A stretch of 63,677 nt of DNA, filler included, from Hausera hauseri (lineage: Eukaryota): the NCBI GenBank assembly GCA_046269625.1. It is 11 parts of 11 records of this genome, joined end to end, with 100 filler letters (N's around TTAATTAATTAA, not from the genome) between each part and the next. Parts side by side here need not be neighbours in the genome. Positions count along the whole stretch, not along the records: positions 23,336 to 27,284 come from JBJURY010865186.1; 10 more parts are not named here. One strand, written 5' to 3'. Under the pieces are notes generated by a model. The model saw only the letters and a list, made by a program, of their open reading frames with translations. It had not been told where the DNA came from and ran no database searches. Below, piece after piece: positions 4,060-54,260 of the stretch. The first letter of the stretch is position 1. Each line of letters starts with the position of its first letter. A program made the position numbers and the translations under genes.

Positions 4060-4690
4060 AAAATTACTTTTTGTGCTAAATCCGAATTGTGTATTTTTCG
4101 CCGTGCAGTTCCACAAGTGGATATTGATGCTTCAGCTTTTGAAACAATTTATAAGAAAAATCTAATTTCTAATACGAATGTTATTGTATTCCAAATAAAT
4201 GGATCAGAAAGTAAATACTTAGATTTAAATGATACGTTACTCTGTGTAAAGATTAAAGTTAATAAAGAAGATGGTTCTAATATTTCTGCAGATACAGGAG
4301 TAAATCTGAGCAACTATTAGTTACACACATTGTTCTGGGAAGCAATTTTATCGTTAAATAATGTGCAGATTGAAGATTCAAACGATAAATATATTGTAAA
4401 GGCACTGATAGAAAATGTTTTAAATTTTAGTGCTGATACAGAAAAATATATTTGCAAAGAATCGGAGTTGGTACAGAAGATGGCAGAAATGATTGGACTA
4501 AAACTTCAAAAATGATATCGCATTGTGGTCCACTGAATTTTGATTTTTCAATCAGCCGAAGTATTTTATTCCTGGAATTAATGCTAACATAAAATTAATA
4601 AGAAATTCCAGTGATATAATCCTAAAATATAAGGCACCAGCGGATGCTAAATTCAAAATTACGCCTGTAGTGATTTTATCGGAATTGTTT
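4060..4690 (+). pseudogene. Polinton/Maverick major capsid protein, N-terminal part
   Basis: KSELCIF..QVDI..IVFQINGSESKYLDLNDTLLCVKIKVNKEDGSNI..NY*LHTLF..LSLNNVQI..Y.VKALIENVLNF and later QPKYFIPGI match the conserved Polinton MCP pattern (KSELDLF..IEF.I.G....Y.DL....L..LHSLF..Y.Y.A.IE.LLN). Confidence 0.82.
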
Positions 4691-4799
4691 TCATGGAAAA
4701 TCACAAACTGGACATACACGTTTCTTCTCTGCTCCGTGAATGTCATGGACGGTAATGTTCAGATATACTGGAGTCAAATTACAGATACGCAATGACTAC

Positions 4800-6065
4800 G
4801 ATATGATATTGAAGCTTGAAAGGGGGATTCGTGGAGAAATTTGACAGGTAGTCCATCGACATGCAGAAGCAAATAATAATTACATGTCAAATTATGATGA
4901 AACAAAATTATCATCTTTCATCGCATATCTGGACGACAACAATTTTGTCTTAGCCTTTCATACGATGAATTTAAATGGGTAGAATACCCTGATAGCGCAA
5001 ATATCATGGGCATTACCGATGATGCTAAAACGGGATTTATTTTTGTGACAGATATTCACTACGACTGACTTCAACATATGAAACATGATCAGTTGCCTCT
5101 TCTACCAAATTAAAAATACCGCCTGGAGGAAAGTTCAGAAAAATATTAACCCGTTTGGGTGATAGGGAACAATACGTAGTGCATTACTTCAATTTGCAGC
5201 AGGTTATCCGAAATAATTTCATTGTCATCAAAGTGCATAGAGTTTTGCAGTTCAGCCAATCCAAATGGCTTCAACCATTTATTCAATTCAATACAAATCT
5301 TCAAATAAATACAAAAAACAATTTTGGAAAGGATCAATTCAAATTGTACTACAACTCAGTTTTTGGAAAACTGTAGCGAATATAAGAAACAGGCTGTCAA
5401 CTGAGTTCGTGAACGAAAAGCAAGATCAAGACAGATAATTGAAAAGCCAAATTTCTTACAGAGCATTCTCTATCCTGAAAATTTTGCTAGTATTAGAATG
5501 TATAAAACGATTCTGAATTTCAACAAGACGATTTGTGTTGGAATGTCGATACTCGATTTGTCAAAAGCACTCATGTACGACTTCCACTATAATGTCATGA
5601 AACCAAACTTTCCATACGTTCAATTAATGTATATGGATTCATTCATGTATCATATGCAATAATTTTTTGCTGTTTGGTATATTTTTCTATACATCAGATT
5701 ATCCAAAAAATCATAGGAACTTTTCATTGTCAAATACAAAAGTTTTGGTGAAATTTAAGGATGAAGAAATAGCAAAATTGTTACTGCTTATGTTGGACTT
5801 GGACCGAAAATGTACGCAAATAATGTGGATGGACAAATTAAGAAAAGCACCAATAGTATTCAGAAAGCTACACTTGAGAAACATATCATGTTTAAAGATC
5901 AATCAATCAACTCTATTATCAGATATTCAGCGAATTTTATCACATTATCATGTCGTGACGACAAATGCACTACGAAAGAAAAATTTGAACCTCTTCGATA
6001 AAAAACGATTTATTATAGCAGATGGGATATCAACATTGTCTCATGGACACTTTTACTTTATGTAG
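4800..6065 (+). pseudogene. Polinton protein-primed DNA polymerase B, palm/thumb region
   Basis: ERGIRG..RHAEANNNYM..YLDDNN, KVHRVLQFSQSKWLQPFI.FNT, FKLYYNSVFGK, GMSILDLSKALMYDFHY, TSDYP, KFKDE, DKKRFI..TLSHGH. Confidence 0.92.
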
Positions 6066-8069: not shown

Positions 8070-8169
8070 NNNNNNNNNNNNNNNNNNNNNNNNNNNNNNN
8101 NNNNNNNNNNNNNTTAATTAATTAANNNNNNNNNNNNNNNNNNNNNNNNNNNNNNNNNNNNNNNNNNNN
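8070..8169. other. Artificial contig linker (44N-TTAATTAATTAA-44N); identical linkers at 12702-12801, 16969-17068, 23236-23335, 27285-27384, 33928-34027, 44063-44162, 49473-49572, 54475-54574, 59268-59367
   Basis: Same 100-nt structure ten times; the core gives stops in all six frames. Confidence 0.98.
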
Positions 8170-10120
8170 CAGTTCATCCTCACAATGATGGACCGTTCCT
8201 CGCGATGGCCAGAGGCTGTCCCGCTTCGGAGCACCAACACAGAAACAATCGCAGACGTTTTCATCCGCACTTGGATCAGCAGGTTTGGATTACCCCGCCA
8301 CATCATTTCGGACCAAGGTCCACAGTTCAAATCCAACCTGTTTAAAGTCCTTGCCAATCGATTGAGAATTAACCACATTAACAATTCACCATATCATCCC
8401 CAATCGAACGGCCTTATTAAACGCTTTTACCGAACAATAAAAGCGTCTTTTAAAATTCTTGTTGAATCTATTCGCAGTTAAACCACACTCCTTTCGTACG
8501 TTCTGCTTGGCTGGCGGAACACACCATCTACTTCTACAGGCTGTTCACCTGCAGAAGCATTATTTGTCACTTCCATCAGATCACTATTTGAGCTGAATGA
8601 GCTGGGCAATACTCATACACACGAAACCATACAATCGGCAGAGAAACACTTCGTTGAGATCAGCAAAGACTCATTTTGCAGATTGTTACACACAAATGAA
8701 CCCTACATACCGACGATTTATATACTGCCAAGTTATTTTGGTTAAAGAATCAGACTCCATGTGATTTTCAACCTCAATATGTCGGCCGTTACAAAGTAAT
8801 TCGCTTACATTCCCACAAAATCATCATTTTCAAAGACGACAAAGAAGTAACCGTTCACATCTATAATGCTAAACTGGCTTTTTTCATTGACGATACGTCT
8901 CCCATCGAAGTTACTTCTCCACCAAAATCTTTATACCACGCGCAGCAATCCAACAATTCACCTTCCATCTCTGATCAATGTCGTAATCCACTTGCCCCTA
9001 CGTTTTCTCCAAAAACTTCCACTTCAATCTCTTCTCACAATTTAGCCTCTCTCTCCCCATCCGATTTTGCACATTCAAGCCTTCCACCACTTCCTTTATC
9101 CCCTAATAACAACTTGCTTTCTCCTTTTACAGCACTTCCTCCATCAAACACCATTTCGACTTTACCAATCTCTCCATCTACACCTTTCATCATTCCAACC
9201 TCGTGCACACCACCTTTCAACGACCTTCCTTTGCTTCCTCCATCTTCTCGCTCTCTTTCGCCTCGTATCGCTTCACCATTTTCTCTCTCTCTTTCTTCTT
9301 CCACACCTTCCTCATCTTCGGCGTTTTCTTCCATCTTTCTCCCCACACATCAATTTTACTCCTTTCACTTCCGCTTCACAACTTCCTCCTCTCTTTACCT
9401 ATTACTTTATCCCTTTTTCTCTCTCTACTACTACTTCTGTTTCATCTTCCACTTCCACTCTCTCACATAATTCAATTCCAACTTCTACTCCAACTTCTTT
9501 CTCTCTTCCTTTATCCGCAACTACACCTTTAATAATTCCTTCGTTTTCAACAATCTCTCTTCATCCTTCACCTTCTTCTTCTCTTCTTTCTGACTCGTCT
9601 TGGCATCACACAACACTAACAATAAAATCTGACCATTTTATCCCAACCTCAAACTTTGCAAATAAACACACAACACAAAGACAAAACACGCAGAGTCATA
9701 TTCAGCAAATATAGCAGGGAAAATCGTTAGAAGGCACCCAACGTCTCGTCCACACTAAGACCGACTGACACAGACACTTTTTCGTTTTGCGGTTTTTTCT
9801 CTTTCTTTTTTACTCTTTATAGTTTTTACTTTGCCACGGGGGGTGATGTGGTGCCCACAGCGGCCGGCACACTCTGGCCCATTTCGTTTGACACGGCCAG
9901 GCGTCCGTTGCCGCCGCGACAGCCTCATAGGCGGGTCCCAATTTCCCGCTTTGAGGATCGTGTCATTAGCCTGAAAATATTAACAATGATCCATGAATAG
10001 CCACGGCGTCGAGCTTATCAAAAACAAAAAACATATTCTGCCTTAATCTTATTGGTTTATTCTGGAATATTATTGTTAATTCTTTCTCATTCGAAAATTC
10101 TACGTTGAACGACTCTCACA
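8170..10120 (+). mobile_element. 3' part of a Gypsy element (integrase core, Ser/Pro-rich tail, PPT, 3' LTR); same family as 27895-33220
   Basis: DRSSRWPEAVPL..FGLPRHIISDQGPQF..PYHPQSNG; closely similar to ORF 29349-30083; PPT GGGGGGTGA at 9838-9846. Confidence 0.9.
9847..10120 (+). repeat. Probable 3' LTR (274 bp, TGTG...CACA)
   Basis: Starts TGTGGTGCCCAC immediately after the polypurine tract; ends GACTCTCACA exactly where GPCR coding sequence begins. No second LTR is available for confirmation. Confidence 0.65.
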
Positions 10121-12701: not shown

Positions 12702-13311
12702 NNNNNNNNNNNNNNNNNNNNNNNNNNNNNNNNNNNNNNNNNNNNTTAATTAATTAANNNNNNNNNNNNNNNNNNNNNNNNNNNNNNNNNNNNNNNNNNN
12801 NCTTTGTGGGTCGGATCCCGGACCGCTCCAGGTTCTACTTCAGTCCAGCGACATTCCGGCCGACGCGGCAGGAAGAGTCCCGGCCGATCTGTGGATTTGG
12901 TCAGGATGAAACCAGGAAAGGAAATCCCGCGGTTCCTTCGCAGCGACGGAGCTGAACTTTGGGAATGGTCTCGAGTTTCTGGAGAATAGTCCAAGTGACC
13001 TTCCCACTCGAGCATTATTTTTTAAAGCTCTAATAATAATAGCAGTGAGAATGCAATCTCCTGAACCAGCACGGCAAAGTTACAACGGAACTCTCCTTAA
13101 AATACTCTCTAAATACTAAATACTCTAAACGACACCCCGTTACCTTCTTCTTTTCTTTTCCCTCCTTACTAACAAAGAGATTATTATAGATATATTTTAG
13201 CCCGAGCTAAAACCAGTGTCTCAAATTATTCCATCATCCTGTTAAACATACCCTTTAAAGTGCGAAATGATGATGCGATGATCTCACAGTGATGTCATAA
13301 ACATGTGAGTA

Positions 13312-15490: not shown

Positions 15491-17879
15491 AGAATTAAAG
15501 TAGTATTCCTTGTTAGTATTTTTAGTTTTACGTTTTTCTATATGCTCTTAAGCAGTAACCTTCCCATTAAAAAGAAATTACTGTACTACAAAATTATTAT
15601 TACAAAGTGTGAATATTTATGTAAGATATTATAGGAGTACAGTTCAAGAAAGGAGTTCCATTAGGTTTTCTGGTACATGTTATGATTAATAAAAATTTAC
15701 AACGTTATCTTATTTTTCTAATATTAAAGTCGTAACCAGTGTGTAACATTGATGGAGTTAAATTGCTAATAGTGATATGCTAATTATTGTACCTATTAAA
15801 AGCATCGTAGTTTTACATGTATTGTTGAGGTAATTATGAGGTATGATGTAGCATGCTGAGGTAGTTACTGTTAGAGTTAACATTACTTGTACTTGAAGCT
15901 GTAGGCCGTAATGCAAATTTGTGATACAGCATGACACAATGTTCCGAAACAAGTAGCAACAGAAAATAATAAATTAGCATTCAATTAACGAAGTTAAAAT
16001 GATATGTTGTGTTTAAACCTAAAGTTAAGATGTTAATTCTAAAGTTAATGAGCACGTAACGTTAATGAAATAGTTGCTAACAAAAGCAAATTGAAAATTA
16101 TTGAAGGCATAGTGATAACAATTACCGAAATTTAAAGTTATTAATCAATGTATGAAATGATTGTAGAAATTGTAATAATGTTTAAAAGTTTTTTTAAGTA
16201 TAATTTCAATCAAGAATTTATTTACAATAAGTACAAAAATATCAAAATTACAAAATTAGTGTTAATACAATGTAATCAATTTAGTTCCATTTTACTTAAT
16301 TACACTAAAGTCAGGCACTTAGTTACTAAAAAGAGTAACGTAAAGCCCCCAGAATTAAGAACTGTACCTACAAATAAATTTTGTAGCTAAATTAAGTAAC
16401 CAAACACCTAATATTGTATAGAAACTAATAAATTAGAACATTGAACTGAACAAAATTTTTACTAGAAAATTAGTATTTGACTCAAAATGTTTTTAAACCC
16501 TAGGGTTTATTTGAGTTAAATTTGGTTTCATTTCTCGAAAACTTTACTCAGCAATACAATTCTTTTGTGAAGAAGTTTTGGTCTTTTCAATTGGGATCCG
16601 AAACCAACGTAAATTTATTTTCATTTATTATTTAAATTTACTTGAGTTTATTTATTATCTTGGTTTTTAGTAAATAAATTCATTCCCACTAATTAATTGC
16701 GGTCGCAGCTGAAATCATAGTAAGCTACGCGAATCACACATAAATCACTAAAATATAAACAATAAGGGAAAGTAATTTCTACTTTTGAGTTAAATACCCT
16801 TCTCCAAGGAATTAGTTAAATCTTATACAAGGGATTTACAAAAACAAATTGCATAAATAGTTAATGTGCATTAAAATTCTTTGGGAACGTCTAAAAATTA
16901 GATTTGAATATTACCTTTGGGTTTTTCAAGAACGTTTAGAGTTCTTTTTTGCAAGACACGCAATTAATNNNNNNNNNNNNNNNNNNNNNNNNNNNNNNNN
17001 NNNNNNNNNNNNTTAATTAATTAANNNNNNNNNNNNNNNNNNNNNNNNNNNNNNNNNNNNNNNNNNNNAGCAATTTATTTCTTAAAATCAAAAATTTAAG
17101 CCATCATAAACGGATATGAGATATTCACCCTAACAGGATTCTCATGTAAAGTTTTAACGGCCATTATCACACCACTCGGTAAATTCCTAAAAGCTTACGA
17201 AGAAAGTAAATGGAAAGCGGATGTTGAACGACATGTCACTTACTGTAATCTAAAATGAAAAAGGAGACATATATTTAATTGCAAACTCAAATTCATCAAT
17301 ATCAAAACACGAAAAGATTACTCTGACGATGGCGAGCCTAAGGAAGGAGACTCCTTCTCCAGGATAAATAGACATAAAAGCTATTCATTTATAAAACCAC
17401 CGTTAACAATATTACCGCCAACTGCGCCTATATGTAAAGATTGTGAGAAACAATCTATGAACTCATATCAAACGGACATCTACAGAAAACCGTTCAACCT
17501 TGAGGATCCTTATGAAGAAACAAAACACTACGATGTATTACGCAAAGTACATACATCATTGTCCAGCAGTTTACGACCACAGAATAATTTATTCACCTAA
17601 AATATCCAGGACGAGTGAAATTCTATCACAATTTTCAAGAGACCACGAAATGCTAGCTTTTAGAAACCAAGAATTGCAGTTAACAGTTAAAACTCAGGAA
17701 ACGGAAATCGTCAATTGAGCGAACAATGAACTGTATCCAAATGGAGATCTAAGACAGTCAATCGACCAGCCAGTTGTAGTCACAGAAGTTACAATTAAGG
17801 GATATAAAGTATCAACAATTCAACATCTCAAAATAGCGCCGAATTACTATGGTACGGTAATCGAAGGTAGACCCTTCAC

Positions 17880-23200: not shown

Positions 23201-23369
23201 TGGATACTTTGCTTTTACCACAAAATGTCATTTTGNNNNNNNNNNNNNNNNNNNNNNNNNNNNNNNNNNNNNNNNNNNNTTAATTAATTAANNNNNNNNN
23301 NNNNNNNNNNNNNNNNNNNNNNNNNNNNNNNNNNNTGATGATGATTGCGCAGTTTATTTATTATCGACG

Positions 23370-24410
23370 ATGACGACAAAAATGGAACATAAAATGTGTC
23401 TTGGCTCCAAACAGAAATTAAACGGTTTTCAAAATTCTTCTACTATAAACACTGAAATACTGTGCACAACATTGTGAGTCAATGATAAATACATGGGCCG
23501 AATGATATTTACACGAGCTGTTTCGCCCGGTGTTTCGTACACGTCCGAATTCAGTCCAATAGAAGCCAATAGTTGTTTACGGTGGCTGTCAACATATACG
23601 GGTTCAGTTTTATTCGTTAAAATATTGATTCGATAAAATACTTCGTAGAGACGTCGTTTGTGTTTAGTAGCAATGGACTGTCCTCCGCCGGTTTGATCGA
23701 ATTTTTGTTTTTTAAAACCCAGATTCCGTGCCAATAGTTTATCAAAGGCAAACCATGGAACATTATTATGTAGTGTAAACGAAATACGACCATCAGAGTT
23801 TAATTCAAATGTCTTGGTAGCCAATTTATCTAGTGCCTTTATGGTTGTTCACAATTCTGTTTCCGTTTCCGTAAGAAAATCATGTCCTGTTGTATGAGAG
23901 TAAAAGAATGATTCAGTCTTTTGCCAGTTTACTATAATATCGGTGGTTTTTATGGTGTTTTCAGAAAGGTTTAATTTTTCACTAATTATACTATGCCCAC
24001 CGATCTGTAGACCTTTCGAGTGACATTGACAGATTGAAAACCCATGCCTGAGTGTCGGTTAGTGATTTAAATTGAAATTCAATTGGACGTTTGTGTTTTA
24101 GCATCAATCGATTGTTTAAATGAAAAATATAAACCGGTAAATATTGCCGCTTGTAACTGCGAACGTAAAATATTCCATTAGAGTTTCGGGCTAACTGCAA
24201 ACGACTAGATGCTGGAGATTGTCTTAGTAGAGTATAGTATATTCCACTGTTCTCACGTCTTGTTATTGGTGAAAATGTACATATGAATTCCGCCAGAGCC
24301 ACTTCCCAGGCTGCCTGGCATAAATCGAGCAGCTAGTCCAACGCCATGGTAAACCGTTCAGCTATATTATTGTTTTTGTTGTTGTCATGTTCTATAATCT
24401 GTTACTATCA
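23370..24410 (-). pseudogene. Polinton minor capsid (penton) protein
   Basis: N-terminal RFTMALD*LLDL..AWEVALAEF; C-terminal QLLASI..PMYLSL..VHSISVFI. Confidence 0.75.
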
Positions 24411-24429
24411 AGTACCAAATAAGTGCTCA

Positions 24430-25430
24430 TCACTCAATATGCGACGGAAATATCCAACTCGGTATAATGTATCAGCGACACTTGACGAGATATTGTTTAT
24501 TCGAAAAATGGGCGGTTTTCCAGTAGTACTTGCAATTTCTGTTTGTAAAATTTTCCGAGTATTTTGTTACCATTTTAATTTTCTAAACCGTACATAACAG
24601 ATGTTTGATTTATGTTGATTGCTGAAATTCCCAATTGAAATTCTTAATGAATGGTGTCGTACTCAGCTTTGAAATAGGTACATGATCACCAATTTTATAC
24701 TTGGGACGTTTAATTAGTCGTTGTCGTTGTTGTGTTCGGTTCTGGTAAAACCCCATGTCCAATCATCGATTACTACCACCGGCCGTAATCCGTTGATACC
24801 ACGATGTATCGAATGATTGTATGCATGGATAATATCCGGTAGTACATTTATCCAGCGTTTTTTGCCCTGCTTGGTAAAGAATGTTTTCAGTCGGCGGCGT
24901 AAGATTTAATTAAACCGTTCAACAAGTGCAGCTTTGTATTATGAAAACACCGAGTAGTAGTTTACACGGAACCGCCTCAAAACCAATGCAACATGGAAGT
25001 TGCAAAATTCTTTACCCAAATCCGTTTGTACATGTTTCGGTGGTTGTTTTTGCTGCTTAATTAATCTGTGAATAGCGTCGGCAATCTCTTTACCCGATTT
25101 GGATTTGACAACAATTGTACGCGCAAAACTATTAAACACATCAATACATATCATCACATATTGATACCCATCGTTGATGCTGGCGTACGGAATCAATTCC
25201 ATGAGATCCATTTACAATACATTATTTACACCTGCAGTATGGTATACACGAGTTGAAAACCGCCTTCTTATCGGTTTGTTTAGGCTTTATGCTAACTCTT
25301 TTGCGAGCCAACGTTGGGTTTTTTACCGAGTCTGTTTGACATTCTTTGCCACTTTGTAGACGCCAATATACCTGACGGGATGACACGGATCATATCACAC
25401 GTCACCCATCGTTGTCGTCAATGATGTCAT
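24430..25430 (-). pseudogene. Polinton retroviral-like (rve) integrase
   Basis: YDP.HP, WL....AYSLNKPIRRRF, MDLMEL..NDGYQYVMICIDVF, VQTDLGKEF, KAALVERFN, YNHSIH, KYKIGDHV. Confidence 0.92.
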
Positions 25431-25554
25431 TTTTGTTTGCATTGCAGCAATTAGAACGAAACGTAAATGAAAGATTCGGTAAACTGGGGCAAAATGATAA
25501 AAACCATGCACCCATATCCCCGAATCACCATATATAAACTGTCATTGTTTATAT

Positions 25555-25880
25555 TATGCTGCAGAACCAGAGTCCACCTATTAATGACGTGACAATCGTA
25601 GAATTGCACCAAAGAATCCGCCATGTTGCTAATACATGACCTCTCGTTTCAGACGTTTACTACAAACGTTGGCAAAGGCAATGAATGGTTTTCGATACTT
25701 TAGTAAATTTCGCTTTCCACTCCCAATATCAACGTGACCCACAACGATATTGTACAAAATTTCCTTCAAATCGTCCACAAATTGCGGGAATGATCGCAGC
25801 ATGTTTCGCTTGTCTCGTAGTTGCCTCGAGCAAATCAATAAAGTATGGCTGATTACGTATGAATCGCATTTTTGGACGTA
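25555..25880 (-). pseudogene. Small Polinton core or membrane-active protein
   Basis: LKEILYNIVVGHVDI..LLKYRK..KRLKR..QHGGFFGAIL/TIVTSLIGG resembles the conserved small Polinton ORF (E..LN.L.G.V.....Q.GGF amphipathic end). Confidence 0.6.
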
Positions 25881-26103
25881 TTGATGCTGAGACGTAGTTG
25901 TTTATAACTGTTTCCACTGTGACGGTAATTTGCGTCTAGCTGATGCTGCTGTTGTTAGAAGCACAGAATTAATTAATATCTTGACTTTAGCGGTTCGATT
26001 TGATGAGTTTCTTGCCGGACACCCGCTTGGTAGGTTTACGTTTAGCAATTCTTTTTCGGAAATTCTTCATTTTATAACAATCATGTCGTCGATTTTTGAA
26101 TGT

Positions 26104-26665
26104 TTACACATGTACACCTTTCTGGCAGACAATATCTGTTCGTACACGCATGTCATCGGGACAATGGTGTGTAAAGTCATTAAACAAATATCCATGAGGT
26201 TTGCTCGTAGCATCTTGATATGCATCTATCAAGTAGGCTCGGTTGTGAGGAAATGCTTGTCGTGCAACATAATCAATGATAGTCTGACCACGAGGATTTT
26301 TGAACAACACCAAATAGTGTACGTTTAGATTTCTTGTTCGATGCTGTCCACCATGATAGATCATGTTTTGCGTAATGAAAATAACCGTCACACCACTGTA
26401 TCGCGCAATCTTCGCAAACAGGTTGTTGAATTCCAATTGTTTTGCGGCTTTCTGAAATAAATCGTCAATGACAATAACGTAATCGTTGCGTAATCCTCAG
26501 ACCAATTCCCATCAAACCCATCAGTCAACGTCATCGATTTTAATTTACAAAATTTCCGATGTCAAACCTGATTCACCATCATCACCAACACCCTGACGCC
26601 AGTAAATGTGGTTGTACCGCGGTGAATGGAACATTTCACGGTAGTTCTGCAATAGTTTACAAAGT
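26104..26665 (-). pseudogene. Polinton A32/FtsK-like packaging ATPase, Walker A region deleted
   Basis: YVIVIDDL (Walker B), VIFITQN, LNVHYLVLFKNPR, AYQDATSKPHGYL..RVRTDI. Confidence 0.9.
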
Positions 26666-26753
26666 GCAGCTTCATCTAAATAATACAACCTTTCCTAACA
26701 TAATTTGTTTATAATCGTGTTACACACATACATAGCTATAGTACACTGTTGCC

Positions 26754-27203
26754 ATGTTAGCTAATATCAACTATCGCGGAGATGTTACCGAGTGTGACAT
26801 TAACAAACTACCTTTTGATAAATGGAAGCCGAGGCAGTAGGTACTCAAATGTAAGCCGGATTTTACATGTATCATATTTCAATCGGGAAAGTGTCGTATT
26901 ATGGGTTGTCGCAAACCAATCACAGCTGACAGTAACAGTAAGCTACTGCGATTCGGAATTGTCATTGACAAAATCCAATAAATAAGGGTAACTACTCAGT
27001 TAGACTACCAAACAATCAATCTGTACAAATTAGCAATGGCCACTGAATGCACGTATGAACCCGATCTGTTTCCTGCACTGAGACTTACATCTTTTCGCCC
27101 ACTTTGTGTCAATTTGTTTAGCAGTGGAAAAATTGTTGTACTCGGTATTCGGACAGTGGACTACGAACCGATTATTAATGAAATTAAAAACCATATGTTT
27201 TAG
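26754..27203 (+). pseudogene. Divergent TATA-binding protein (TBP)-like gene, 149 codons, two in-frame stops
   Basis: One frame from ATG 26754 to TAG 27203: MLANINYRG..TCIIFQSGKCRIMGCR..KIQ*IRVT..INLYKL..YEPDLFPAL..VNLFSSGKIVVLGIR. Both TBP repeat signatures (FxSGKxxxxG) and the YEPELFP-like motif are present; stops at 26838 and 26979. Confidence 0.85.
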
Positions 27204-28157
27204 TGAATCGAAATAATGTACATTGCGTAACAAACTATAAATACAAATCCCATGGTCATTCAGACATTACTGCCATAAACGCCGNNNNNNNNNNNNNNNN
27301 NNNNNNNNNNNNNNNNNNNNNNNNNNNNTTAATTAATTAANNNNNNNNNNNNNNNNNNNNNNNNNNNNNNNNNNNNNNNNNNNNCTCATGTTTTATGGAT
27401 CACAATTTCTATGATCGAATAATTTGATCGAATTCTTGAAGATCAATTTCTATAAAAAATAGTATCAAATCAACTGAAATAATATGACAGATATCCACAT
27501 GTGGGTTTTGTTGGTATAGGAAATAAGTATTGACCGAATTGGAACACCGTTTTGATGATATACATTGAGAATAGAGGTACAGATGGAAGAATTAAATTTA
27601 TCATTAAATTTCTTAGCCCATGTCTAGGTCGTGTTTATTCTTTTATTTTGAACAGCAGTAAGAGTCATATCAAGAAATGATGATGACATTGTTGTCACAT
27701 TTTAACGAGGTTCAATCAAAAAATCAGTGGCCAAAATAATTCCGTAAATGTAAAAAAAATAATTTGTACTGATATTAATTATGAAGAATGGATGTCGCCT
27801 TAAATTACAAAATATCTGTAAGTCGTTTATCATAAAAATACGAAACAGAAAAGTGAGAGTTATTGTTGCAAGTCGTCCATTAATTGATTTCATTCCGCTG
27901 CTTAAATCCTCGAGTCGGAATTTTGTTGTAAGCGTTGTGTTGTGCGAAGATGAGTCAGAAAGAAGAGAAGAAGAAGATGAAGGAGGAAGAGAGGTTGTTG
28001 GAGACAGACGGTTGAAGGTGTTCAAGAGAGTGTTGGAAGGCAAAGGAATAAAAAGAGGTGTAGTGGCGGATGAAGGAGGAGAGACGAAAAGTGACATAGA
28101 AATTGAAATGGTATTAGATGAAAGAGTAGAAGTAGAGGATGAAACAGAGGTAGTAGT

Positions 28158-28723: not shown

Positions 28724-29348
28724 GTAGTAGAGAGAGGAAGAAAGATAGGGATAAGAGTAGAGAGGGAAGGAAGTTGTGAAGCGGAGATGAAAGGAGTAAA
28801 AGACGATGTGTGAGGAGAGAGGGAGGAAGCGAGCACCGAAGATAAGGAAGGTGTGGAAGGAGAAAGAGAGAGAGAAGACGGTGAAGAGGGACAAAACGGA
28901 AGAGAGCAAGAAGATAGAGAAATTGGTGAAGTCAAAATGGTGTTTGGCGGAGGAGGTCTTGTAAAAGGAGAAAGCAGGTTGTCACCAGGGAATGGAGGAG
29001 ATGTTAATAGGCTTGAAGGTGGAGAATCGTATGTGGAAAAGGGGGATGAAATATAAGAAAAAGTTGAAGTAGAAGTCTTGGGAGAAAACGTAGGCAAAGT
29101 GGATTAAAAAATTGAGCAAAGATGGGAGGTGAATTTTTGGATTGCTGTGCGTTGTATAAAGATGTTGGTGGAGAAGTTGTTTCGATAGGAGCCGTATCGT
29201 CAATGAAGAAAGCCGGCTTAGCGTTGTTGATGTGGACTGTTACTTCTTTGCCGTCCTTGAGAATGATGATGTTGTAAGAGTGTAAACGAATTACTTTGGA
29301 AGGGCCAACATACTGAGGTTAAAAACCACACGACGTCTGATTCTTTAG

Positions 29349-30200
29349 TCATACGAACTTGGCAGTATATAAATCGTCGAGTACGTATGGTTTATTTCCG
29401 TGTAACGGTCTACAAAATAAGTCTTTGCTGATTGCAATGAAGTGTCTCTGGGCCGCTTGTATTGCTTCGTCTGTAGGAATATTGGCCAGCTCAGCCAGTT
29501 CGAATAATGGTCTGATAGAAGTACAAAATAATGCTTCTGCAGGCGCGTAGCCTGTAGAAGTAGATGGTGTGTTCCTCCAGCCAAGCAGAACGTACGGAAG
29601 GAGTGTGGTCCAATTGCGATTGGACTCAGCAAGGATTTTAAGAGACGTTTTCATCGTTCGGTGAAAGCGTTTGAGACGGCCATTCGATTGAGGATGGTAT
29701 GGTGACGTATGAATGTGGTTAATTCCCAGTCTATTGACAAGAGCTTTAAACAGGTTGGATTCGAATTGTGGATCTTGGTCCGAAATGATGTAGCGAGGTA
29801 ATCCAAACCTGTTGATCCAAGTGCGGATGAAAATGTCTGCGATTGTTTCTGTGTTGGTGCTCCGAAGCGGGACAGCCTCTGGCCATCGCGAGGAACGGTC
29901 CATCAATATGAGAATGAACTGATGGCCGTTGTCTAAGAGTAGTGGGCCTACAAGGTCAATGTGAACGGATTCAAAACGAGACGTGCAGGGAAAATGATAC
30001 AGTGGTGACTTTAAGTGCTTAGTAACTTTGTATTTTAGGCATGCCACACACTGCCTAATCCATGCCTGCACGTCAGAACGCATCGACGGTTATACTACTT
30101 GGCGTTGTAAGAGACGAAAAGTGGCTTTGGCACCGGGATGGTTCAACGAATGGATGTTGTTGACTTTAGGATTATTAGGTTTGGAGGTGTCAAAGGCCAC
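29349..30200 (-). pseudogene. Gypsy integrase
   Basis: H..HPG..CVAC zinc-binding domain, DLVGP, SDQ; third catalytic residue mutated (LKRFHR). Confidence 0.9.
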
Positions 30201-32324
30201 ACCGTCGATGGTTTTGCACGATGTAAAAGACTTAAGAATGTCTGGAGGTGGTTGGTTTTGTTAAAGTTTGGATTGAGAAAAAATTGGTGTAAAATCGGTC
30301 GAGCTGACCGATCGGGACAAAAAGTCAGCTACTAAATTGTCGACTCTGTTTAGGTGCTTAATTTCAAAATTAAATGTGGACAAATACGATATTTGCCTCT
30401 CCTGACGTGTTGAAGGCGATTTCATGGTAAGAATTTGAAGCAATGGCTTTTGGTCTGTTTGTATTGTAAAGGTTTGTGCGGTTAGCAGATGCTTAAAGTG
30501 TTTTACGGCAAGGACTATTGCAAGCAACTCTCGGCCAAAGGTTGAATATCTTTGCTCTTGTGCCGTGAATTTTCGAGAGAAGAATTCTAATGGCTCATGG
30601 AATCCATTTTTAACTTGATGGAGGACAGCACCTGCAGCTGTTATGGATGCATCTGTGTTTAAGAAGAGTTCTGCATGGGAGTCGGGATAAGCCAAAATTT
30701 CCACGGATTTTAGATTATCTTTGAGGTGATCGAAAGCGTTGACTAGCTTGGCGGTCCATTAAATAGGCTGTTTATTCTTGCCAGAGCTTAGTGATGCAAA
30801 TAGAGCGGTTAGAGTGGAGCAGTGTGGAATATAATTATGAATAAAGTGCAAGGTTCCGAGGAAAGAACGCATCTCTGTTGATGCATGTGGTAGCTGTATA
30901 TTTTTGAGCTGTATGGTGCACTCTGGCTGAGGTGAATGTCCGGAGGAGCTAATAACATGTCCTAGGAATTTGACCTTATGTTGAAAAAAGTGCATTTGGA
31001 GAAATTAATTTGCAAGTTGTTTTGGTGCAAGGGTTGGAAGATTAAACCTAAGTGCTCGGAGTGTTGTTTCGAGGAAGATGATGCAATTATGATATCATCG
31101 ATATAGGGTTAAGCAATGTCTAAACCTGATAGAACTGTATCAATATGCCTTGGGAAAGTCTTGAAAGCGCTGTGGAGTCCAAAAGGCATGAAATGTATTC
31201 GAAAAGGCCGAAAGGTGTAATGACAGCCGTTTACGGAATGTCTTCTGGGGCCACCGGAATTTGGTGGTATGCTTTGTGCAAATCAATGCAGGATAAAATG
31301 GTCGAACCATAGAGCCTGTGAAGAATATTATTGATTAATGGTAAAGGGTAGGCATCCATTGTTGTTATGATGTTGAGTTGGCGGTAAACACCGCATGGGC
31401 GAAAGGTACTATCTTTTTGGGAGCCACATGTAGTGATGAAGACCACGGAGATTTGGATCTTCTGATTATTCCTGATCTTTCCAGTTCGAGAAACTCAGCC
31501 TCCACTGTCTGTCTGCGACGAGGCGATAGCGGGCGGACCTTTTGACGTATGGGTCGTTGATGCGCTGTTACTATGTGATGGAAGGTGGATTTAGGTGGTA
31601 CGAATGATTTGTCCTTTTGCAACAGACGTGTGCAGGAAAACGAAATATATTGCTGTATGTCAGAGAGCAACGATGAAAATTTTTTGATGTTGTCGATGTA
31701 TCGTGATTGGATGCAGTTGATGTATGAGCTGTAGACGAGGTGTTGTGACAAGGTGGTATTAGGTGCAGGATGTTCGTGTTGAAGATGATGTTGGCAGCTG
31801 TTGTATCAGTAATAGGTGCCACGCAGTTGGCAATATCGTATTCGTTGCAGTAATAAAAATTTCTATATAATAAATGATTATAAAAATAATTCAAATCGGA
31901 AGTCGTTTTCTTTAGTATTGACTTGCTGGAATCGATCGCCCGGGTGGTCACCGAAATGCTGATAATTTGATTAAAGTTATTTCCGCTCTTTAAGGAACAT
32001 CGTTTACATTATACAAGTAAATTGTAGTACGGCAGAAAGTCTGAACCCAACATAGGTGTGCGTACATTGGCTATTGTAAATTTCCATGTGAATGTAGTTG
32101 GAAAGTGTGGAAGAGTGAACGTTAATATGGTAACTCAAAAAATTTGTAAAGGTTCATTGGACGCAATGAACAGTTGCTTTTTTGAAGTAAAATTATTTTG
32201 GATGTGTTGTGTTGGTGGCAGTAAGGAGATTGCTGCGCCGGTGTCTATGAGAAAATTAATGTTTTGCTTTGTTGGAGTGACGACTGCTAATTCCAACGTG
32301 AATACAGCAAAAGAAATGTGTCGG

Positions 32325-33602: not shown

Positions 33603-35276
33603 TGAAAAATTTTTGGCGAATAAATTTTTATTTTTCTGATTGTTTTAAAATAAATTATTTTCTTATTAGTTTTATATTTATTTGAAATTACCTTTTTTGA
33701 AATTGATTTCTAATTTCGGTTTCTGTAAGTTTCCTGAACTAAAAAGTATTCACGTCATATTTTGAGTAAGTGTGTTGTCGTTCTGTAATGCCAAAATAGA
33801 AATGTGATTAATAAACCTTTCAAGGAAACGGATTTTACTGTAAATCGGGAATTTTTATAACATGTGCGTGTAAAATATAATGCTGATTAATAATATGACA
33901 AAAGTTTAATTAAATTAATTTAATTAANNNNNNNNNNNNNNNNNNNNNNNNNNNNNNNNNNNNNNNNNNNNTTAATTAATTAANNNNNNNNNNNNNNNNN
34001 NNNNNNNNNNNNNNNNNNNNNNNNNNNCCCGTGTTGTTTCCTTACTGTTGCATCACCTGATGTTATCCTTTCTGTACAGCAAGGATGGAGTTGCCTCTCC
34101 ATTTCCACATTGTCTGCTTGCCTGGGCTAACAATATGGAGGAAGTGCCATGCCCACGTTGCACTACCCCCCTCTTACATAAAAACATAAATATATAATCA
34201 TCGATAACAATGGCATGACACTACGTCTGTGAATTTGTTACTGGTCTTCGCCTTAGTGTCACAGTTCACAGTTTACGAACTCTTTACAAGATATCACACT
34301 CGTTCCGGAAGTTCATAGCCCTTTTCCGCTCGCGCTGTGCATGACTATAATTTTTGTTTGTTTGTTTGTCTTCTTTGACATTGGCAATATTTTTTAAGCT
34401 CAAATCATGAATCCAAAATTTTGTTTCCTGTACGAAATCTCGTATTCTGAGGACTCTAGCACTTATTACAGGATAATTTGGGAGAGGAGTATAAATTTGA
34501 TTTTAGAAAATAAAAGTGAAAAAATATATCCTGTAATATTTCCAAGGAAGGTCCGTTCAATACGGGGTTTCGTACATAGGGTTTCATAGGTAGGACTATA
34601 TAGCAATTAGTAATAGTTTTAGTGACAACGGGCATAAAGATAGAAAAAGAGGGTGTTTAAAATACAAAAGGAAAGCAGTTTCATTGTAAGAGGGAAGCAG
34701 GTGGATGTGAGAGAAGGAGTGATTACGTACAAAGAGATAGAGACAAAAACAGGTTAAAGAAAATAAAGGTTCATGTTAAGACAGGTGAAAGATTGTTCAG
34801 TTTATGAAAGCGGCGAGCATTCTTCTCGGAGGAGCAGTATCTTATAGTGGTCACTACTCTTGATTTATTTAGGTTAGTTTAGAATTCAGAAATGATGGCC
34901 CGACGTTTAGTAGTACCCAAACCCCTAACCCCCACATACTTTGTCACTAACCAACAGAGCTCGTTTTTGATTTTCACGCAGAGTTTTTTGTCGTTTTGCG
35001 AGGAATACTTGTGTGTATGTAAGTTTGTGTATGGGTAAGTTTGTGTATCTACGAATGTATCTGTGCGTGTATGTACGTACATACAAGCATTTCAAGCGTT
35101 TGCTGTTTTTTCGCGTTACGTCATATTCACTTTTTCGCAGAAAAATGACTAAATGTGATGAGCAGCTAAAATAAAACGCAGACAAACTTTAAGTATTAAG
35201 GGATATAATAGAAAACTAGTGCAGTAACAATGTAAAGTGCACTAAAGGATAATGGAATAGTGAAAACAAATAAAAT

Positions 35277-38713: not shown

Positions 38714-40095
38714 CTAAGGGCTCAACCAGATGCAGAGACTTGACAGCATAAGTGGATAGCAGGAGGAGGAGATTTGGAGAGTCTCCTTCCACCTTCGTAT
38801 AAGGTAATTCACCTCCTGGTGTCTTTGGGGGCTTCTTATAATTTTTTTTTGGGTGTACTTTCACTGTAGCATTCTCATTAAAAAGCAACGATTTGGTTTT
38901 GTATTGTCCTCATTGTTTACAGCGTGACATGTTTTAACTTATAAAAACAATTTTGTTTCACGAACATAAGTTAAAACATGAACCAATGCAATTTTTTCCT
39001 TGTAGTTTTTATTTATTAATGAACTAAATTGTTTTTCAAGTAAGCGGTTTATGAACCAAAGTGTTCGTCAAGTAAGCGGTTTATGAACCAAAGTGTTCAT
39101 GAAAAGTATAACTGTATACCAGAGCCTTACAGTGTAGAGAATACTGACTGTATCGAGTATGCAACTAATGCTTGCAATGTCCAGACTGTTGTTGGTGATA
39201 CTTGGTTTCTTGTTTAGGACACAATTTAAGGAAAACACAGAGTTGCTGTTCATTGACGGAAGAATTAGTTTACCTTCATCTTCGGGTGATAGTTGGCTGA
39301 CATCAGACGTTGTGGATGTGGTGTGATGTTGATAGACTGCATTTTGAATATTTATTTTTCTGTCCATAATGGTCCGAGTATTCGGTGAAGTCTACTGTCC
39401 ATTATAACGAGCGTCGAGCCCAGCGTGTGTGTTGCGGGAACGGAATCACTAAGTAGCATGCCTGTGGTTAGGCCAAGAGCTGTTTCTTGCAGTGCTGCGA
39501 ATTCGTCCACCAGCCAGGTGTTTAGGTACTTGGCAGTGCCCATGTGTTTAGGTACTTGGAAGTGCCCTGAGCTAGTACATTTTTTTTATGTATGGTACAA
39601 ATGAATGGTAACTGAAACTGTGGTTATTTTTTCGTCTATGTGAGCGTTCTGTTTGTCTTTTTTAGGGTCTATGTCGCAGTTCTGATAATGCTTGATCGCT
39701 ACACGTCGGAAAATTTGTAATGTTGTGTGTTATTAAAGGTAATGGTGACGCACGACCTTTGTCAGTATCCTTTTATTGTTATATTATGGGATGTATGCGA
39801 TGCGTTACCGGTAAGTTTTTTCTGAACTGCCTTTTCTTTATTTAAAGAAGGCCTATAGTAGTGAGGTCGGACGTCCGTGTACATTGTCGTGCACGTTAAA
39901 AATTCCTTGGCAGCTGGAAGCGAATCTAAGTAGAGTTGTCTAACGAGAAAAGTAGTATAACCAGCACATAATAACTACGATTAAACTAATTTTTTTTAGT
40001 ATTAACCTCCCTACAGGCTGCCGTGGTTATTTCCCAGTATCCTTTGTTTCCTTCCAGTGTATGCCATTGATCCTAGTGTACTGTTCCTATCACAT

Positions 40096-43000
40096 AAGGT
40101 TGGGTATCATACGGATACTGGAGGCGGTTTAGGTCGCCTTTTTCATGCTTTTGCGCACTAAGAATTACATGTTGAGTCATGGAAGGGTCATATTTTCTAT
40201 TAAGGTTGGGTACCATAAGGGTACTGGAGGTGGTTTAGATCATCTTCTGTATGTTTATCCATACTTATGGGAGCCTTTTGGGTCATGAAAGAATCATATT
40301 TTCTGTTAAGGTTGAGTATCATAATGGTACTGGATGTGGATTAGGTCGACTTCTTCATGCTTACCCATGCTTATGTGAGCCTTGTGGGGCATGGAAGGGT
40401 CATATTTTCTGTTAAGTTGGGTTTCTTGGGGGTGCTGGAAGAGGCTTAGGTCATCGTCTTGATGCTTACACATGCTTATGGGAACCTTTTGGGTCATGGA
40501 AGGGTCATATTTTCTGTTAAGAATTGGGTATCATAAGGGTACAGGAGGTGGTTTAGGTCATCTACTTCATTTCTTAGGCATGCTGGGTCATGAAATGGTC
40601 ATATTTTCTTTCAAGGCTGGGTATCATAAGGATGCTAGAGGTGGTTTAGGTCATCTTCTTCATGCTTATGGGAGCTTTGTTGGGTCATATTTTCTGTTAG
40701 GTTTGGGTATCATAAGGGTACTGGAGGTGGTTTATGTCATCTTCTATTGCTTATGCATGCTTATGGAAGCATGAGTTGGCAAGTTTTCATGTCAGTAACT
40801 TTTCATGTCAACAACTTTCATGTCAACAACTTTGTCATGCCAGCAACTTTGTCATGTTGGTAATTGTTCATATCAGTGACTTTGTCATGTCTGCAGCTTT
40901 TCATGTTGGCATCTTCACATGCCAACAATTTTTCATCTTGGCATCTTCACATGCCAACAACTTTTCATCTTGGCATCTTTTCAGGTCTCAACTCTTCATG
41001 TTGGTAATTGTTGTCATGTCAACAACTGTTCATGTTGACAAACTTACATTGACAGAAATCAAAGGATACATTTTACTTGAATTTTCTCATCTGTTTTTTT
41101 AACTTTACTATGCACAGATCCTGCACACGTCAAATGAGAGCTGATCCATTGATAGAGGAAAAACTCATGTGACAAAAGTCAATAAAAAATGAAATATAAA
41201 AGAAAAAGAAATCAATTATAACAAATAAAACAAACTTCAGAAAAAAATGGAATGTGATGTTTATGTTGGCAACTTACATTGACAGAAATCAAAGGATACA
41301 TTTTACTTGAATTTTCTCATTCAAAACAAACTTCAAAAAACAAAAGGAACGTGGTGTTTTCCTCTATCTGTTGGACCAGCTCTCACTTGACATGTGCATA
41401 ATCTGTACATAGTAAAACAGCAAATAAGAAACCTATAGTAAAATGTATCCTTTGATTTCTGTTCATGTAACTTGTTGACATGAACAGTTGCTGACCTGAC
41501 AAAAATTACCAACACAAAATGTTGAGACATGAAAACTTGCCAACATGCCAAAGAGAAAACTTGCCAACATGCCAAAGATGCCAACATGAAAAATCAATAC
41601 ATCATAAGAGGCCAACATAAAAAGTTCTTGGCATGAAATTTGTCAGCTTGAGAAGTCACTAACATGACAAAAATATTGGGATGTAAAGTCGCTGACATAA
41701 AAAATGTAAAGATGAGCCATGGCAAGATGTCAATATGAAAACTTGTCAACATGAAAAGATGCTGACATGAAAACTTGCCTACACGACAAAGTTGCCAACA
41801 TGAAAAATTACAAACATGAAAAGATGCACAATGAAAACTTGCCAACATGAAAGCTGTCAACATGAATGTTGTTGGCATGAGAAGTCGCTGACATGACAAA
41901 ATCATTGACATGAATTTTGTTAACATGAAAAGTTGCCAACATGACAAAGTCGCTGACATGAACATTGTAGACATACGTTATCAGGATGACAAAGTTGCCA
42001 GAATGACAAAGGTGCTGACATGAAAGTTGTCGACATGAAAAGTCGCTGACATAACAAATTACCGACGTAAAATGTTGCTGACATGAAAACATGTCAACAC
42101 GAAAGTTCTTGACATGAAAATTTGCCAACATGAAAATATACCAATATGAAAAATCCTAATAGGAAAACTTGAGGCATGAAACACTACCAACATGAAACGT
42201 TATTGACAATGACAGTTATCATGTCGCTGACATGAAAGTTGCTGACATGAAAGTTGTTGATATGAAAGTTGTTGACAAGAAAAGTCACCAATGTAAAAAG
42301 TCGCTGACATGACAACTTGCTGAGACACATGCTCACCTAAGCATGCATAAGAATAAAGAATGCGACCAAAACCACCCCTAGCACCCTTATGATACCCAAC
42401 TGTAACAGAAATTATGACCCGTCCATGACCAAAAAGCTACCTTAAGCATTTTAAGTATGAAGTAGACGACCTAAACCATCACCAGTACCCTCATGATACC
42501 CAACCATAACAGAAAATATGACACTTCCATGACCCAAAAGGCTCCCATGAGCATGAAAAAGACGATCTAAAGTGCCTCCAACATTCTTATGATACCCAAC
42601 CTTAACAGAAAATATGACACTTCCATGACCCAAAAGATTCCCATAATCAGGAGTAAGCATGAAGAAAATGACATAAACCACCTCCAGTACATGTATGATA
42701 CCCAAGCCTAACAGAAAATATGACCCTTCCATGACCCAAAAGGCTCCCATGAGCATGAAGAAGACGACCTAAAGTATCTCCAACACCTTTATAATACCAA
42801 ACCTTAATAGAAAATATGACCCTTCCATGACCCAACATGCTCCTATAGACTTGATTAAGAATGAAGAAGACGACCTAAACCACTTCCAGTACCCTCATGA
42901 TACCCAACCTTAACAGAAAATATGATCCTTCCATGACCCAAAGGGCTCCATAAGTATGCATAAACATGAAGACGATATAAACCCCCTCATGCACTCTTAA

Positions 43001-43140
43001 GAAACCCAACCTTAACAGAAAATATGACCATTCTATGACCCAAAAGGCTCCCAATAGGCTCCCAAAAGCATGCATAAGCATGAAGAAGACAACCTAAGCT
43101 ACCTCCACCACTCTTATGATACGCAACTTTAACAGATAAT
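40096..43140. repeat. About 3-kb modular palindrome (foldback-like): 100-120-bp tandem units, 14-16-bp minisatellite and a unique block, mirrored
   Basis: AAGGTTGGGTATCATAAGGGTACTGGAGGTGGTTTAGGTC..GGGTCATATTTTCTGTT units at 40096-40770 and their complement at 42340-43140; CATGTCAGCAACTTTT-like units at 40780-41040 vs 41480-42320; unique block 41040-41165 vs 41350-41480. Confidence 0.88.
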
Positions 43141-44162
43141 ATGATCGATCATTGCTGTGGTAATCTGGGTCGATGCATCTCCAAGGAATCCTTGAGCGGT
43201 CCCTGGCAATGCCTCTAAGATACTCCAACACCACGATGATGGGTCTACAGACTCCTACTATAACCTATAATTTTCTCCCTCTAAGAACTACTCACGTGAG
43301 GCAAAATCAGCCCTATATCATAGGAAACAATACACCTAGACATGGAGGTGTCAGGAGGTCTTGGTCGCTAACTTACAACACTACCCTTATGCGACAGGGC
43401 ACCTGATGCTAGCTAGCCATTACACGCCATCTCCCCCGTCCCTTCAAACCTTACCCCAACATCACTCATATTACGCCTAACTAAAGAAAAAGACATTACA
43501 TCATCAATATGATGACGTTCACAAAAAGACTGATGATGATGATGTATACATCTTCTACTACCTATATATGTCATTAATAACGATGACGGTGTATCTAACT
43601 ACAGAAATACCAACACAAATATTTAATTACCTAAATATATCTAATCGATGTGACACAAGGTCATGGTCACTAATAACTAATAAAGCTTTATAAGGCGCAT
43701 GATAATACCACCATTCCCGCCCCATCGCCCTAACCCTAACTACTCTAACTATATAAAAAGAAGAATTTAATTACGTCACCAAAAATAAAAAACGCAGAGT
43801 TTGCTGAAAATTACCGAGCCTTGTTATCGTATTCCTCTTATAGCCTTACTATAGCTAAAATAATGCGCTATATGAGGCTATTATATTGGCCTTTTCGTCT
43901 TGTCGGACGGTCTTGATAGCAGAAAATGCTGGCTGCTGTCCTACTGAACAGCTTCTTTCATGCGTTAAACTTGCCAATGTTTGAATTACAGATTCTGCCA
44001 CAATATGAACAGGCTACACCTGCATTAATTTCTCCTGATTCTTTGCGTCTACATCTTTTGTCNNNNNNNNNNNNNNNNNNNNNNNNNNNNNNNNNNNNNN
44101 NNNNNNTTAATTAATTAANNNNNNNNNNNNNNNNNNNNNNNNNNNNNNNNNNNNNNNNNNNN

Positions 44163-53800: not shown

Positions 53801-54260
53801 GGTATGAATGACCGTTCAGATAAATATACCACGTCACTCGACTTTGTTATGATAAAGCCGATAGTGGCAATTCATATAATTCGCAATCCGCTACCCTTTT
53901 CGGTATAATTGAAGATTTTCTCATCCAACTTTTCGCCTACATCGGCAATAAAATCTTCCGAATATGGTACGACTCGATGTGATAGGTACCATTGTTTCCT
54001 GTCACCTTCAACGTTTTCAAATTCTGTAAGTGCATAATATTGCACTTTGCAGTGGTGTTGGTGGAATTTTCTCACTTCTGATTCCAACCGGCTGCGCACA
54101 CTGAACGGAACATGCTTCAGCTGTAGTGTTGTCCCTGACATGTTTACTTTCACATCCACGTACGATTTGTTTAGATCGTACTTGATAGTTATTGAAGGTT
54201 CCTCCTGCTACTGCTGCTGCTGCTGTTCGGTACTGTTTCGGATGTATTCGTCAAGACTTG
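50880..54260 (-). pseudogene. Near full-length Polinton pPolB with endonuclease VII-like insertion
   Basis: KGSG, VVNVQN..CF, LLLL..HY..VTNLDRL, YTDIEA (ExoI), DHDHFTGRY..ACNA, FHNFRGYD (ExoII), FLDSLQF, YLKLDVYLLADIF, IRGGMTF, YIDIENLYGWALSQPLP, KLKNNFLYGKT, DTSNYP, IGCFKDE. Confidence 0.95.

Follow-up and report, generated by a model that had tools for sequence, protein, structure and literature searches.

A 63,677-nt stretch of DNA from Hausera hauseri (the window, by which we mean the whole stretch analysed, spacers included) carries, at positions 26754-27203, a dead pseudogene that belongs to a conserved family of Polinton genes whose products have the fold of the TATA-binding protein (TBP). 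The family itself is conserved and living, and its loci have two promoter classes, i.e. a variant TATA box of consensus YATAAACR ahead of the virion genes and, often, a canonical TATA box ahead of the TBP gene. Judging from sequence, we consider it reasonably probable that the viral TBP is made early, binds YATAAACR ahead of the virion genes and recruits host TFIIB and RNA polymerase II (Pol II) for their late transcription; by analogy, the system would be a viral TBP-like late factor. An earlier note on the window had proposed that this Polinton lineage has its own promoter-recognition factor, an interpretation that our results support.

As that note described, the window copy is a single-frame, intronless gene without an N-terminal extension; it comprises 149 codons and a stop, contains both motifs quoted at the time, and is decayed by two in-frame stops, at codons 29 and 76. 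With the stops read as X, the protein is assigned to Pfam family PF00352 (E 5e-14, 52 bits, cut-off 22.9) and matches 35 solved TBP sequences, with nothing else at E up to 1. An AlphaFold2 model of an intact homologue, P0002 (pLDDT 96), has the two-lobe saddle fold of the TBP family; all 44 listed Foldseek matches at E≤0.001 were TBPs, and across both lobes the model compares with TBPs with a Z of 13.2 and a root mean square deviation of 2.6 over 145 residues. The proposed presence of both TBP repeats stands for the C-lobe, which is whole, but only partly for the N-lobe, both helices of which are gone in the model (no helix of at least four residues occurs before position 85). Because some relatives of ~170 aa align with full-length N-lobes (helices from the alignment only) and the helix-less form, which includes the window copy, is a clade (100/100) nested inside the family, the loss of the N-lobe helices looks secondary. 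The product is a TBP-fold protein and a member of PF00352 that fails three features of canonical TBPs.

Among 101 candidates, 84 proteins of 107-204 aa were identified as relatives of the window protein, the closest being open-framed and 77% and 76% identical to it; with a profile, 74 clusters were retrieved at E≤1e-30. Of 77 loci from a metagenome scan, five (L073-L077) had cellular-type TBPs and were dropped, leaving 72 family loci. The window consists of 11 small contigs placed end to end with identical 100-nt spacers (44 N, 12 bases, 44 N), such that contigs adjoining across a spacer are not real neighbours, and gene linkage is claimed only within the piece at 23336-27284. On that piece, remnants of ATPase, integrase and minor capsid genes accompany the TBP gene, and the homologues lie among ATPase, integrase, capsid, protease and pPolB genes, which bears out the Polinton association claimed earlier. 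At least one hallmark gene (ATPase, integrase, minor or major capsid, protease or pPolB) was present in 33 of the 72 loci, including 24 of the 31 loci of at least 3 kb and 13 of the 15 of at least 5 kb, and all six, pPolB, major capsid and protease included, were present in two relatives (L012 and L023). The TBP gene is not always in the same place: it can precede the ATPase gene, oppose it head-to-head or follow the protease and a DEDD-like gene. The seven longest family loci, none of them established as a complete element, showed neither terminal inverted repeats nor target-site duplications. The intact locus ORFs (open reading frames) are under purifying selection, with a median dN/dS of 0.23 (range 0.06-0.70, over 63 non-independent pairs). 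The piece, with the TBP gene, is covered in each of its 30 bins by contigs of all four public runs considered, and none of the contig pieces among the matches listed spans the stretch; in the best run 18,900 contigs match the piece, most of them less than 95% alike, which fits a many-copy family. Scanning IMG/VR with the family TBP returned one unrelated viral TBP only, the scans with ATPase, major capsid protein (MCP) and pPolB gave no match, and phage records gave none.

A quick tree of 73 rows separates the family from every cellular and other viral TBP sampled (SH-aLRT 99), and in a careful tree of 37 rows it occupies one side of a branch, with 8 cellular and 3 other viral rows on the other, at a support of 93/92, below the starred threshold; the trees contained no animal TBP and no TRF2 or other TRF. 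The outcomes that the earlier note had set against its proposal were not seen: the fold is clear, the homologues are linked to Polinton genes and, within this sampling, the family lies outside the cellular TBPs. That a processed host TBP or TRF pseudogene landed in a Polinton by chance, for which the intronless and broken state of the gene and the composition of the trees might be adduced, is refuted by the 77% identity to intact short homologues, as against ~25% to cellular TBP, and by the family-wide Polinton context, and it also conflicts with the purifying selection; we give this origin next to no weight.

Residue positions are given in what we take to be yeast TBP numbering; as a check, the expected Asn, Val, Phe and Glu fell right on a plant TBP core. 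The alignment had 227 rows, comprising 166 proteins and 61 locus ORFs, the latter having been chosen by motifs that cover some of the scored sites. The intercalating phenylalanines F116, F190 and F207 are kept in 227, 226 and 226 rows, respectively, N69 in 217 and P191 in 205. By our own mapping of positions, 6 of the 11 residues that contact the bases of TATAWAWR in canonical TBPs are replaced family-wide. Fixed new residues are R122 (226/227), M124 (227/227), N205 (226/227) and Ser or Thr at positions 159 and 161 (224/227 each), with further replacements to N71 (197/227) and R194 (195/227). The TFIIB-binding glutamates, E186 and E188, occur together in 212 of the 227 rows, both sites being acidic in 222. 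Among the 85 rows that came from the profile search and were not motif-picked, R122 is present in 84, M124 in 85, N205 in 84, E188 in 85 and E186 in 74 (acidic in 80), with N71 in only 57 and R194 in only 53. The core N69-T215 span has a median of 123 residues in the clade of the window copy, versus 147 in cellular TBP, and the family has lost the basic patch of N-lobe helix H2 (a mean of 2 Lys/Arg versus 6 in the reference). Thus, the family shares with cellular TBPs (PF00352; eukaryotic TBP/TRF and archaeal TBP) the saddle fold, three intercalating phenylalanines, N69, P191 and the E-x-E-x-F stirrup, but differs in its low identity, the lack of a conserved F99, the replaced base contacts and, in the clade of the window copy, the missing N-lobe helices. 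As far as the accessible text of PMC7221094 goes, two C-lobe glutamates bind TFIIB and vary in giant-virus TBPs, which carry their own TFIIB; the basic N-lobe patch binds TFIIA, TAF1, Mot1 and Brf1/2, and the same glutamate is used by Brf1/Brf2.

Promoters were compared over the 90 nt ahead of 295 start codons, 251 of which were kept after removal of near-copies. The motif [CT]ATAAAC precedes 18 of 20 ATPase genes (0.6 expected), 9/9 MCP, 9/14 minor capsid, 7/12 integrase, 4/6 protease and 6/7 PLA2-like genes; taking the five hallmark genes ATPase, MCP, minor capsid, integrase and protease together, it is present in 47 of 61, with 16/23, 10/14 and 21/24 in the three subgroups. Upstream of the TBP gene the motif is found in 1 of 47 cases (1.4 expected) and a canonical TATA box in 24 (7.8 expected); the window copy has no clear canonical TATA ahead of its ATG. 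In 129 virion-module regions, a set that includes accessory genes assigned after the data had been seen, ATAAAC is the top 6-mer (93 versus 10.1 in dinucleotide shuffles), and the consensus is YATAAACR. The box is one-directional, being on the sense strand in 89 of the 129 regions and on the antisense strand in none, and 53 of 98 sites start 31-40 nt ahead of the ATG; C is invariant at its position 7, and variants that differ by one letter occur at close to background level. Each of the three minus-strand boxes in the window (26713, 25906 and 25553) is followed by an ATG at 37-38 nt. Box and canonical TATA are at a similar distance from the ATG, and an initiator-like TCA[TCG]W follows canonical boxes in 34 of 47 cases, compared with 6 of 67 for the variant box.

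The sequence ATAAACA fits the forkhead consensus, and TATAAA and CATAAA are variants of the poly(A) signal. A box that acts as a forkhead site or as a poly(A)/stop-codon signal, with no relation to the TBP gene, would agree with the overlap of several boxes with an upstream stop codon, but GTAAACA occurs 0 times in the virion-module regions, the motif is never antisense, its spacing is fixed to the next ATG, and the ATPase box of the window has no co-oriented gene upstream to end. Both forms of this explanation were rejected on the direction, the spacing and the missing GTAAACA, and we regard it as highly improbable. As a separate observation, TTGTTTTA is frequent 40-60 nt ahead of TBP genes that have no canonical TATA box (TTGTTT in 21 of 47, 6.1 expected) and is possibly a third promoter class or an autoregulation site.

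Elements without the family TBP served as controls. An IMG/VR scan with the integrase gave 13 loci, of which four are animal-type controls and nine are distant elements outside the control count. The four controls are partial adintovirus-like contigs; the parts searched contain no TBP, the box is present in 0 of 18 genes, and the ATPases have canonical TATA boxes. A locus found by its ATPase alone holds the family TBP and has the box ahead of three of four genes. A 22.9-kb Polinton contig in a bacterial metagenome-assembled genome (L094), likewise found by ATPase alone, has a different TBP and the box in 0 of 6 genes, bringing the total for control elements without the family TBP to 0 of 24. 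TBPs of the L093/L094 type are without both glutamates and the R122/M124/N205 signature and lie outside the family in the tree. Polintons with such a TBP-TFIIB pair resemble the family in having a TBP-fold gene and no RNA polymerase that we could see, but their TBP gene overlaps a TFIIB gene and their virion genes are without the box. In the family loci, which are partial, no TFIIB-like ORF was found with a viral-TFIIB profile (263,508 nt, best E 0.44) or in Pfam scans. These results fit retention of the glutamates only where the partner is host TFIIB, a pattern drawn from one element.

From what is established, i.e. the fold, the family, its Polinton context, purifying selection, the residue pattern and the two promoter classes, we infer the timing, the DNA binding, the contact with TFIIB and the release from TFIIA/TAF1/Mot1/Brf1 control. 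The TBP and replication-side genes would be read first, by host machinery from canonical promoters, after which the viral TBP would bind YATAAACR ahead of the virion genes, in preference to TATAAAAG. In TBP-DNA structures the N-lobe touches the 3' half of the box; here that half would be where the C of the box lies, and on the protein side R122, M124 and the lost F99 would correspond to it. Host TFIIB and Pol II would be brought in through the conserved stirrup, and without its N-lobe helices the protein would escape control by TFIIA, TAF1, Mot1 and Brf1. The earlier note had left it between redirecting and decoying the host transcription machinery; the fixed DNA-face residues and the matching box favor redirection, a decoy being less favored. 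A bolder formulation, which we put forward tentatively and place a little short of an even chance, is that in a broad Polinton lineage an early-late switch is effected by a single TBP of 150 residues, stripped of regulatory helices, re-specified for YATAAACR and using host TFIIB/Pol II, which would make it the smallest known viral late-transcription system, sister Polintons having arrived independently at a TBP-TFIIB pair for the same task.

Several observations weigh against the proposal of a viral late TBP. Within 90 nt, 14 of the 61 hallmark genes have no box, four plus-strand copies of YATAAAC on the window piece are ahead of no recognised gene, and there are boxes that run into a stop codon or into coding sequence. 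No Phe is conserved at the F99 position in the 227 rows, i.e. the four-Phe feature of canonical TBP is absent. The four control contigs belong to a distant ATPase/capsid lineage, two of them being near-identical, and only parts of their records were searched; as all 72 motif loci were chosen by their TBP, few controls bear on the association of the box with the TBP, and shared ancestry could give the same pattern. The family loci are fragments, and a viral partner may therefore be missed. By our mapping, three of the fixed replacements match those of Giardia TBP, an ssDNA (single-stranded DNA) binder according to the available part of PMC12209930. There is a crystal structure of wild-type cellular TBP on a box with the C(-25) variation (title of PDB 1qn3), so host TBP may read TATAAAC.

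Alternatively, TATAAAC might serve host TBP as a weak TATA box, with the viral protein acting as decoy or repressor by sequestering TFIIB or by silencing host and early promoters, a reading with which the crystallised variant, the similar distances of the two boxes from the ATG and the TFIIB stirrup, the best-kept surface, are all in keeping. We nevertheless think it unlikely: fixed new residues on the DNA face would be superfluous in a TFIIB sponge, the invariant C at position 7 and the near-background level of one-letter variants argue against a merely weak TATA, the initiator-like motif is far scarcer after the variant box than after the canonical one, and controls without the family TBP have canonical TATA boxes ahead of their ATPases. 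A further reading, to which we likewise assign a low probability, accepts that the viral TBP reads the box but has it partner another viral factor or a non-TFIIB host adaptor, such as Brf1 with Pol III. The herpesvirus ORF24 precedent (PMC12529657, seen in part), the partial loci with many neighbors that have no Pfam match, and the use of the same glutamate by Brf1/Brf2 (PMC7221094, in its accessible text) speak for it; against these stand the lack of a neighbor common to all subgroups, the loss of the N-lobe basic patch, which Brf1 also needs, and protein-coding targets that suit Pol II.

It is improbable that the protein instead binds ssDNA or termini in protein-primed replication, with the box read by something else, even though V71N, N159S and V161T are also present, by our mapping, in the ssDNA-binding Giardia TBP (PMC12209930, as far as available). 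Giardia TBP has lost three phenylalanines and the Polinton family one, the TFIIB glutamates are kept, and there is a separate neighbor that resembles nucleocytovirus DUF5871/DUF2738 proteins. Those proteins are, we presume, viral ssDNA-binding proteins. The gene for that neighbor (cluster c15; L035:2847-3512, plus strand) stands directly behind the TBP gene in eight loci and has a canonical TATA box.

Comparison of the proposed late TBP with known systems brings out both likeness and difference. KSHV (Kaposi's sarcoma-associated herpesvirus) ORF24, a TBP mimic of beta/gammaherpesviruses, is on the best reading alike in serving a nuclear virus without a polymerase that uses canonical promoters early and a variant TATA late; in the part of PMC12529657 available, it acts on TATTWAA late promoters, is large, binds Pol II directly and belongs to a six-protein complex, and a section title has it modelled as incompatible with TFIIB. 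The herpesvirus-like restriction of a variant TATA box to virion genes is seen in the YATAAACR pattern, but the Polinton protein is a bare core of ~150 aa, all of it TBP fold, that keeps the TFIIB stirrup and has no additional domains at either end for binding Pol II and DNA, and is not of the ORF24/BcRF1 type. With the TBP-TFIIB pairs of Nucleocytoviricota the family has in common that the viral TBP is divergent and no longer shows the regulatory signature of the N-lobe (PMC7221094, accessible text); most of those viruses encode TFIIB, and the two glutamates vary in them, whereas the family keeps the glutamates and no TFIIB was found beside its TBP. With Polintons, Mavericks and adintoviruses (Polintoviricetes) it shares the ATPase, rve integrase, penton, hexon, protease and pPolB of its relatives.

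In the literature, PMC8502044 (2021) and its preprint place the label 'TBP' in figure legends on MELD viruses, including Fig. 5, with no analysis in the text seen, and the wording of the legend does not determine which virus or type of TBP is meant. The accessory-gene section, the readable labels of Fig. S2 and the supplement text seen contain no TBP, and no promoter classes are described there. A term search of recent surveys, as far as accessible, gave no 'TBP' or 'TATA', and TATAAAC together with late promoter or Hoogsteen gave 0; beyond the adintovirus paper and its preprint we found no account of the TBP family or the box, in a search that left aside subscription papers and Repbase. Polinton gene expression, and whether there is a real lytic programme, is an open question, and a 2026 preprint states, in the part available, that no Polinton virions have been seen so far. 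That the virion genes have a promoter class of their own, together with a factor that fits it, speaks for a late phase under regulation. The family is moreover a natural TBP with changed specificity and without the docking helix for TFIIA/TAF1/Mot1, and may serve to probe the capabilities of a minimal TBP core; since only one small protein and a box of 7 bases are involved, the proposal is cheap to test.

The divergent orientation of the TBP gene to the packaging ATPase remnant, reported earlier, is confirmed, with 79 nt from the ATPase start to the TBP start. By contrast, the earlier claims that the 5' end of the ATPase gene is deleted at about 26665 and that the adjacency arises across a breakpoint do not hold, since the ATG (26675) and the promoter box are still present and the loss is internal to the ATPase. 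Related ATPases start a few residues ahead of the Walker A loop; in the window, the ATG reads M-K-L and is followed directly by residues that in relatives lie downstream of the loop, ~17 codons, including the Walker A loop, being missing inside the gene, together with a frame change. With start and box retained and the break internal, the head-to-head layout of ATPase and TBP is therefore native. A loose end is that other copies, in two public runs, diverge from the window sequence at 26661. The order of the minus-strand genes on the piece (Table 1) is that of related elements; a relative of the small cluster c9 gene has a weak match to adenovirus pX (E 0.02).

Table 1. Features of the window and of related loci (window positions unless a locus is named)
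Feature	Position	Strand	Remarks
Contig piece	23336..27284	.	Holds the TBP gene and the parts listed below down to the minor capsid remnant; assembly spacers at both edges
Polinton TBP-like gene	26754..27203	+	Pseudogene copy, 149 codons, stops at 29 and 76; clade with helix-less N-lobe
TATAAAC box	26707..26713	-	38 nt ahead of ATPase ATG, within common 79-nt head-to-head spacer
A32/FtsK-like packaging ATPase remnant	26100..26675	-	Start present, internal loss across Walker A, stops and changes of frame
TATAAAC box	25900..25906	-	37 nt ahead of ATG at 25869
Small conserved gene, remnant	25593..25869	-	Between ATPase and integrase; cluster c9
TATAAAC box	25547..25553	-	38 nt ahead of ATG at 25515
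Small open ORF	25402..25515	-	Met-Gly start; resembles cluster c27 of relatives (judged by eye)
Retroviral-type (rve) integrase remnant	24506..25445	-	Stops and frame changes
Minor capsid (penton) remnant	23411..24374	-	Two frames
Artificial spacers, first five	8070-8169, 12702-12801, 16969-17068, 23236-23335, 27285-27384		
Artificial spacers, last five	33928-34027, 44063-44162, 49473-49572, 54475-54574, 59268-59367		
TBP and own TFIIB of L094	L094:3476-4042, 2778-3533	-	Genes overlapping; TBP without TFIIB glutamates; TFIIB gene with 24 homologues
TTGTTTTA ahead of TBP	L005, L006, L011, L018, L041, L043, L047, L050, L053 and others		
Accessory genes of relatives	L023:225-722, L006:3975-4316, L039:1665-2168, L033:1897-3327, L059:8-1216		

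The accessory genes of the relatives include those for a ubiquitin-conjugating E2, a dual-specificity phosphatase, RING, leucine-rich repeat and KilA-N proteins. In clusters c2 and c14 (e.g. L012:1788-2135 and L006:480-818) short AT-rich GT...AG stretches were seen by eye before the ORFs; they resemble introns of the spliceosomal kind, as would be consistent with transcription by Pol II in the nucleus. Behind the TBP stop in the window, at 27236-27260 on the plus strand, a canonical TATAAATA with TCATT suggests the host-type promoter of a next gene lost at the contig end. Other Polinton remnants are on separate pieces, namely MCP and pPolB at 4063-6059 and, at 49673-54156, a DEDD/MAEL-like gene, c2 and pPolB in the same order as in relative L023; linkage of the MCP and pPolB remnants to the TBP gene, which is on another piece, is not established. 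Two copies (77-86%) of the pol region of a long terminal repeat retrotransposon, on different pieces (8170-9179 and 28912-30758), look like a long inverted repeat and were rejected as element ends. The LINE and LTR elements in the window point to a eukaryotic host, probably an animal. An open ORF of 1030 aa at 60409-63501 (+) is of the LINE type, with endonuclease, reverse transcriptase and DUF6451, and at 40095-43144 there is a mirror-arranged satellite, in which 106-nt and 16-nt tandem arrays flank a center near 41.2 kb.
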